Below, piece by piece: positions 1-316 of a DNA stretch of 316 bases. Within the stretch, counting starts at the first letter, position 1. Each line of letters opens with the position of its first letter. Source of the DNA: Escherichia coli (GTDB taxonomy: Bacteria > Pseudomonadota > Gammaproteobacteria > Enterobacterales > Enterobacteriaceae); the NCBI RefSeq assembly GCF_003334255.1, contig NZ_QOWU01000265.1, one strand, 5' to 3'. Both the position numbers and the translations under genes were made by a program. Below the pieces are notes generated by a model, which was given only the letters and a program-made list of their open reading frames with translations, searched no databases and had not been told where the DNA came from.

Positions 1-316
1 AAATTGCCGACATTCCTGCGCAGTTCACACCCGCGCATGCACTTGCTGCATCTGTCCTTACGGATATCCGTGGTGGGTTTATCGAACTCATCCGCCACAG
101 CCCCGCCCGTGTAACCACACTCATCAGAGCGGTAGGTCCACATACAGGTGTTCGCCAGCATGATACGACCGGGAAACAGCGCCCCGTCCGTCTCGGTCGG
201 TGTGGCCAGCACAAACGAGGCCGTCATGGCTGTCAGCTGCGACATCTGCTCCACCACCCAGCGGTCACTCAGCTCCTGCTCCGGGTCCGCCTCCGGATTG
301 CCCGCAACGAAATTCA
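1..316 (-). CDS. L: Phage minor tail (tail-tip) protein L, lambda gpL family; partial CDS, truncated at both window edges, covering roughly the C-terminal half of the protein and stopping about a dozen codons short of the expected stop
   Basis: Minus-strand frame with codons at + coordinates 314..312, 311..309, down to 5..3 has no stop in 104 complete codons. Translation N to C: NFVAGNPEADPEQELSDRWVVEQMSQLTAMTASFVLATPTETDGALFPGRIMLANTCMWTYRSDECGYTGGAVADEFDKPTTDIRKDRCSKCMRGCELRRNVGN. This is colinear, without gaps, with the C-terminal region of lambda gpL as I recall it (NFVNGNSYADPEQEVISRWRIEQCSELSAVSASFVLSTPTETDGAVFPGRIMLANTCTWTYRGDECGYSGPAVADEYDQPTSDITKDKCSKCLSGCKFRNNVGN), about 70% identical by my count, with the blocks TPTETDGA, FPGRIMLANTC, YR.DECGY, AVADE and CSKC conserved. 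The two leftover bases at + 2..1 (tt on the coding strand) begin a codon compatible with the Phe that follows NVGN in lambda gpL. The other two minus-strand frames contain stops. Confidence 0.92.
27..146 (-). other. Cysteine motif C-x8-C-x22-C-x2-C-x3-C within the gpL-like CDS; putative [4Fe-4S] cluster-binding C-terminal domain
   Basis: Cys codons on the minus strand at + coordinates 146..144 (tgt), 119..117 (tgt), 50..48 (tgc), 41..39 (tgc) and 29..27 (tgt). The spacing is identical to the cysteine spacing I recall in lambda gpL (ANTC x8 DEC x22 C-SK-C x3 C). Published biochemical work reports that the gpL C-terminal domain coordinates an iron-sulfur cluster; which four of the five Cys are the ligands cannot be decided from this sequence. 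Confidence 0.6.

Follow-up and report, generated by a model that had tools for sequence, protein, structure and literature searches.

In the in situ cryo-EM structure of phage lambda, the minor tail protein gpL is described as a 'hub protein' (PMC10721106). Its first 166 residues fold as a tail-tube-like beta-sandwich, the counterpart of hub domain I (HDI) in T5 pb3, and residues 154-232 form an iron-binding domain, where density assigned to an iron-sulfur cluster is ringed by Cys173, Cys182, Cys205 and Cys212 (PMC10721106). The HDI and Fe-S domains of gpL together correspond to the N-terminal portion of T5 pb3, and Fe-S clusters have also been described in RcGTA gp13 and T1 gp36 (PMC10721106, PMC11945409). 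An oxygen-sensitive [4Fe-4S]2+ cluster in gpL was shown biochemically by Tam et al. 2013, as cited in PMC10721106. The function of the cluster is still to be characterised according to that paper (PMC10721106), and a later paper on the structure of T1 gives it a stabilising role for the hub protein in the course of assembly (PMC11945409).

The window, that is, the whole stretch of DNA analysed here, is 316 bases long with a G+C content of 60%. In six-frame translation, offset 2 of the minus strand is free of stops across the whole window, giving 104 complete codons (window 314..3), the translation of which starts NFVAGNPEADPEQELSDRW and ends CELRRNVGN. An earlier note on this DNA, made from the letters, described a single uninterrupted minus-strand frame with a translation of 104 aa. 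The frame is indeed stop-free throughout and has that length, but it is not the only one, as offset 2 of the plus strand, the codon-aligned antisense of the minus-strand frame, is open as well. Openness of a frame is only moderately informative in this case: among 2000 mononucleotide shuffles of the window, a single fully open frame was left in 353 and two such frames in 19, with none in the other 1628. The coding strand is therefore decided by homology.

The minus-strand translation is matched by Phage_tail_L in Pfam (PF05100, E=7.7e-42, model positions 89-189 of 206), by the equivalog phage_tail_L in NCBIfam (TIGR01600, 164.1 bits, where the curated cutoff is 70.75, from 104 of the 232 residues), and by PHROG 18 (1.5e-57) and PHROG 4199 (1.9e-56), both of which are annotated 'minor tail protein'. 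In the PDB, residues 117-220 of the 232 residues of lambda Tail tip protein L (8iyk_L) align without gaps to query residues 1-104 (E=1.7e-50), and other structures of the same lambda protein are also matched (8iyl, 8k35, 8xcg and 9e7m). Identity to lambda is 75 of 104 residues (72%) at the protein level and 222 of 316 bases at the nucleotide level. The gpL-like identity proposed from the letters thus holds in the HMM and protein searches that the earlier note had named as its check, with gpL-family models matched well above threshold. With a probability of roughly 97%, the window is coding sequence from the L gene of a lambda-like siphovirus, in all likelihood one resident as a prophage in an E. 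coli chromosome, and this gene encodes a structural tail-tip protein of 232 residues.

Mapped on the identical gene of E. coli S88, the window runs from the second base of codon 116 to the second base of codon 221, in a gene of 232 codons. It is therefore entirely internal to L, as had been claimed from the sequence, and the 115 codons at the 5' end, the last 12 residues at the 3' end, and the start and stop of its own gene copy fall outside it. The ungapped alignment suggests that the lambda domain limits can be carried over to the window protein (Table 1). [quoted passage not shown] No RNA family was found in the window with Rfam at E<=1, nor were direct or inverted repeats, or promoter-like or terminator-like sites, found within it.

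Table 1. Features of the 316-base window and the basis on which each was placed.
Feature	Position in window	Strand	Basis
Phage minor tail / tail-tip hub protein L gene fragment (lambda gpL family)	1..316	-	Open frame, homology, mapping on S88
Putative C-terminal part of HDI (tail-tube-like beta-sandwich hub) domain, residues 117-166	165..314	-	Residue mapping; limit from PMC10721106
Putative C-terminal iron-binding domain, most of it, residues 154-220 (154-232 in lambda)	3..203	-	Residue mapping; limits from PMC10721106
Cys173 codon (TGT), [4Fe-4S] ligand in lambda gpL	144..146	-	Residue mapping; PMC10721106
Cys182 codon, [4Fe-4S] ligand in lambda gpL	117..119	-	Residue mapping; PMC10721106
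Cys205 codon, [4Fe-4S] ligand in lambda gpL	48..50	-	Residue mapping; PMC10721106
Cys208 codon, conserved, not among the four lambda cluster ligands	39..41	-	Residue mapping; PMC10721106
Cys212 codon, [4Fe-4S] ligand in lambda gpL	27..29	-	Residue mapping; PMC10721106

Selection on the frame was addressed with eight full-length L genes, from S88, PhiR5_1, Stx1_EH2197, phage 2851, Lys8385Vzw, cdtI, HannyBb and lambda. All eight have 232 codons with no internal stop, and the five cysteines at positions 173, 182, 205, 208 and 212 are invariant among them. Over the codons of the window, differences from the S88 allele are mostly at sense codon position 3; between S88 and lambda, for example, they number 22, 17 and 55 at codon positions 1, 2 and 3, respectively. 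At ~70% nucleotide identity, 73-75 of the 104 residues are identical in the sense translation, but only 42-46 in the antisense translation. This pattern of substitution shows that the minus-strand L frame is under purifying selection.

Among 5426 complete E. coli genomes searched with megablast, 1799 match the window, with 358 records at an identity of at least 99%. Many chromosomes are 100% identical, including those of S88, ATCC 25922 and MS7163, and among the matches listed, a CDS annotated as 'phage minor tail protein L' covers the 100%-identical segment in every case. The closest isolated phage is Escherichia phage PhiR5_1 (99.4% nucleotide identity), followed by several Stx1a- and Stx2a-converting phages (93-96%), with lambda at ~70%. 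The L segment has 5912 matching places, 14 of which are on plasmids and not on chromosomes; the plasmid copies may belong to phage-plasmids or to plasmid-borne prophage fragments.

In S88, L is an ORF of 699 bp, and its neighbourhood on the same strand reads tape measure gene, M, L, K (C40 peptidase), I, J, lom and side tail fibre genes. The order H-M-L-K-I-J-lom is common to S88, ATCC 25922, PhiR5_1 and lambda. The synteny was read from copies of the window that are 100% identical (S88 and ATCC 25922) or 99.4% identical (PhiR5_1), and in these the M-L-K-I-J order anticipated in the earlier note is recovered, with M upstream and K, I and J downstream on the same strand. The S88 prophage (record 558414-607533) is located between tRNA-Arg/intD and ompT, and that of ATCC 25922 adjoins potB/potA/pepT. 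The L genes of the two differ at 1 of 699 bases, and the 316-nt segment is identical. As the identical segment is found at different integration sites, the window is not assignable to one locus. These copies are an example of how E. coli lambdoid prophages share the tail module in mosaic fashion.

The two prophages also share an unannotated spacer of 343 bp between I and J (S88 region 13686-14028, ATCC 25922 region 15686-16028), which is identical in both. At 0.417, its GC content is below that of the genes on either side (~0.58), and one number is missing here from the series of RefSeq locus tags. The spacer is ~91% conserved, and likewise unannotated, in PPompW-type and Stx-converting phages. 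Rfam at E<=0.1 gave no match across the 3.5-kb M-to-J region of S88, which takes in the spacer, and the spacer holds only poor-looking ORFs. A small moron, a regulatory element and an insertion scar are all possibilities. At the end of both prophages, on the opposite strand and immediately downstream of the genes for the side tail fibre and for tail fibre assembly, is a class I SAM-dependent methyltransferase gene (- strand; S88 region 21371-22039, ATCC 25922 region 24205-24873), which looks like a moron (cargo gene). The S88 prophage additionally carries a cluster of three tRNA genes (Met, Arg, Arg), at 18101-18350 of a separate S88 prophage extract, between the Q antiterminator region and the lysis genes, an arrangement known from Stx-type lambdoid phages.

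Many lambdoid prophages are defective, and in S88 the prophage with the identical 316 bases shows a frameshift in the gene for the large terminase subunit, along with several partial genes. L-like segments are also present in up to 11 copies per E. coli genome. The window could on these grounds come from a decayed L remnant (pseudogene) in a cryptic prophage, from which no functional tail protein is made. However, there is no stop or frameshift inside the window, and every identical or near-identical copy inspected is a full-length ORF of 699 bp. The frameshifts or stops that the earlier note had named as the mark of a pseudogene were looked for in related copies, and L is intact, at 699 bp, in all eight genes examined. 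Furthermore, the prophage around the ATCC 25922 copy has its terminase, portal, capsid and tail genes intact, and the copy at 99.4% identity belongs to PhiR5_1, a phage isolate that forms plaques and was grown on E. coli C. Purifying selection across the L genes also argues against decay. A pseudogene remnant, improbable on this evidence, is unsupported by the window or by any copy examined. From the identical copies elsewhere, L is probably intact at the window's own locus too. As the large terminase of S88 is frameshifted, a given L copy may belong to a defective prophage, and its product may then never become part of a virion.

The plus-strand frame (window 3..314, 104 codons, starting IADIPAQFTPAH) can be dismissed almost outright as a real gene, whether overlapping L in antisense or replacing it. 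It has no stops over the whole window, and in S88 it stays open opposite sense codons 19-305 (~287 codons; opposite 11709-12569 of the S88 region), past the end of L, while in lambda there is no stop in the in-phase antisense frame anywhere opposite L. This frame is open only because the sense gene is without TTA, CTA and TCA codons. These make up 1.28% of codons in the structural genes of the S88 prophage, so that finding none in 104 has a chance probability of P=0.26. The plus-strand translation has no match in PHROGs or NCBIfam even at E<=1, and no promoter-like site is seen within the window. In three of seven homologues (phage 2851, Lys8385Vzw and Stx1_EH2197) the antisense frame is broken by a stop opposite sense codon 141. 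It also diverges fast: 43 of its 104 residues are identical to the lambda equivalent, compared with 75 of 104 for the sense frame, and most substitutions are at third positions of sense codons, which correspond to first positions of antisense codons. The plus-strand frame was rejected as a gene on the missing family matches, the codon-usage explanation, the broken homologues and this divergence, and is judged to be a non-coding by-product of codon usage. That the longer antisense frame (opposite sense codons 19-305 in S88 and all of L in lambda) is a lineage-specific overlapping gene is scarcely credible, the evidence being strongly against it.

With the window read as a fragment of an L gene, the role of its product can be proposed from homology to lambda gpL. 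L and the central fibre protein J, in three copies each, would come together in a ring, and this L/J ring would stack beneath the hexameric ring of gpM. The C-terminal domain of L would bind a [4Fe-4S] cluster via four cysteines, and would be located on the outside of the tip, complementing the HDII-insertion domain of J. Its place in the tail-tip hub would thus make L one of the components of the tail-tip initiator complex, which serves as the platform for assembly of the tape measure and the tail tube. The trimeric hub architecture, the Fe-S binding and the assembly role are all predicted for the window protein by analogy with lambda gpL, to which it is 72% identical. L has, to our knowledge, no enzymatic role.

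The window matters only as context, as it lies inside the tail-tip assembly module of an E. coli lambdoid phage or prophage, and the sequence around it is therefore to be read as phage structural genes. The fragment is of an already known and abundantly annotated gene, and there is no unusual feature in the window. The gene class, the structure and the Fe-S cofactor of L have already been described, and hundreds of public genomes carry annotated exact copies, in agreement with the earlier view that this is a well-known gene class and not a novel system. The role of the surface-exposed [4Fe-4S] cluster of gpL is a question for the whole family, to the answer of which the window adds nothing.

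Compared with known systems, the window does not differ from the L genes of the E. coli lambdoid prophages of S88 and ATCC 25922, which are exact matches. Related L genes are found in PhiR5_1 (99.4%), in Stx-converting phages (several at 93-96%) and in PPompW-type phages. Lambda gpL (NP_040597; PDB 8IYK, 8IYL, 8K35, 8XCG, 9E7M) has the same length of 232 aa as the full-length copies and is identical to the whole S88 protein at 180 of 232 residues, but only the lambda protein has extra cysteines at positions 12 and 140. As lambda L is ~30% divergent from the window in nucleotide sequence, the window represents a different allele or lineage of L and not lambda itself. Prophages with the window allele also differ from lambda downstream of L, in the length of the I-J spacer (343 bp, compared with 60 bp in lambda) and of J (1230 aa, compared with 1132 aa). 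F2-pyocin BHP, T5 pb3, T1 gp36 and RcGTA gp13 are much more distant relatives than lambda gpL. F2-pyocin BHP (PDB 25vf_7) is matched with E=1.7e-14 over residues 110-213, an alignment that takes in the C-terminal region with its cysteines, and a 'hub protein gp21' is matched with E=5e-4; both matches are consistent with assignment of the window product as a hub protein. In T5 the hub domains are fused in one protein, whereas in the lambda-type system they are split between L and J.
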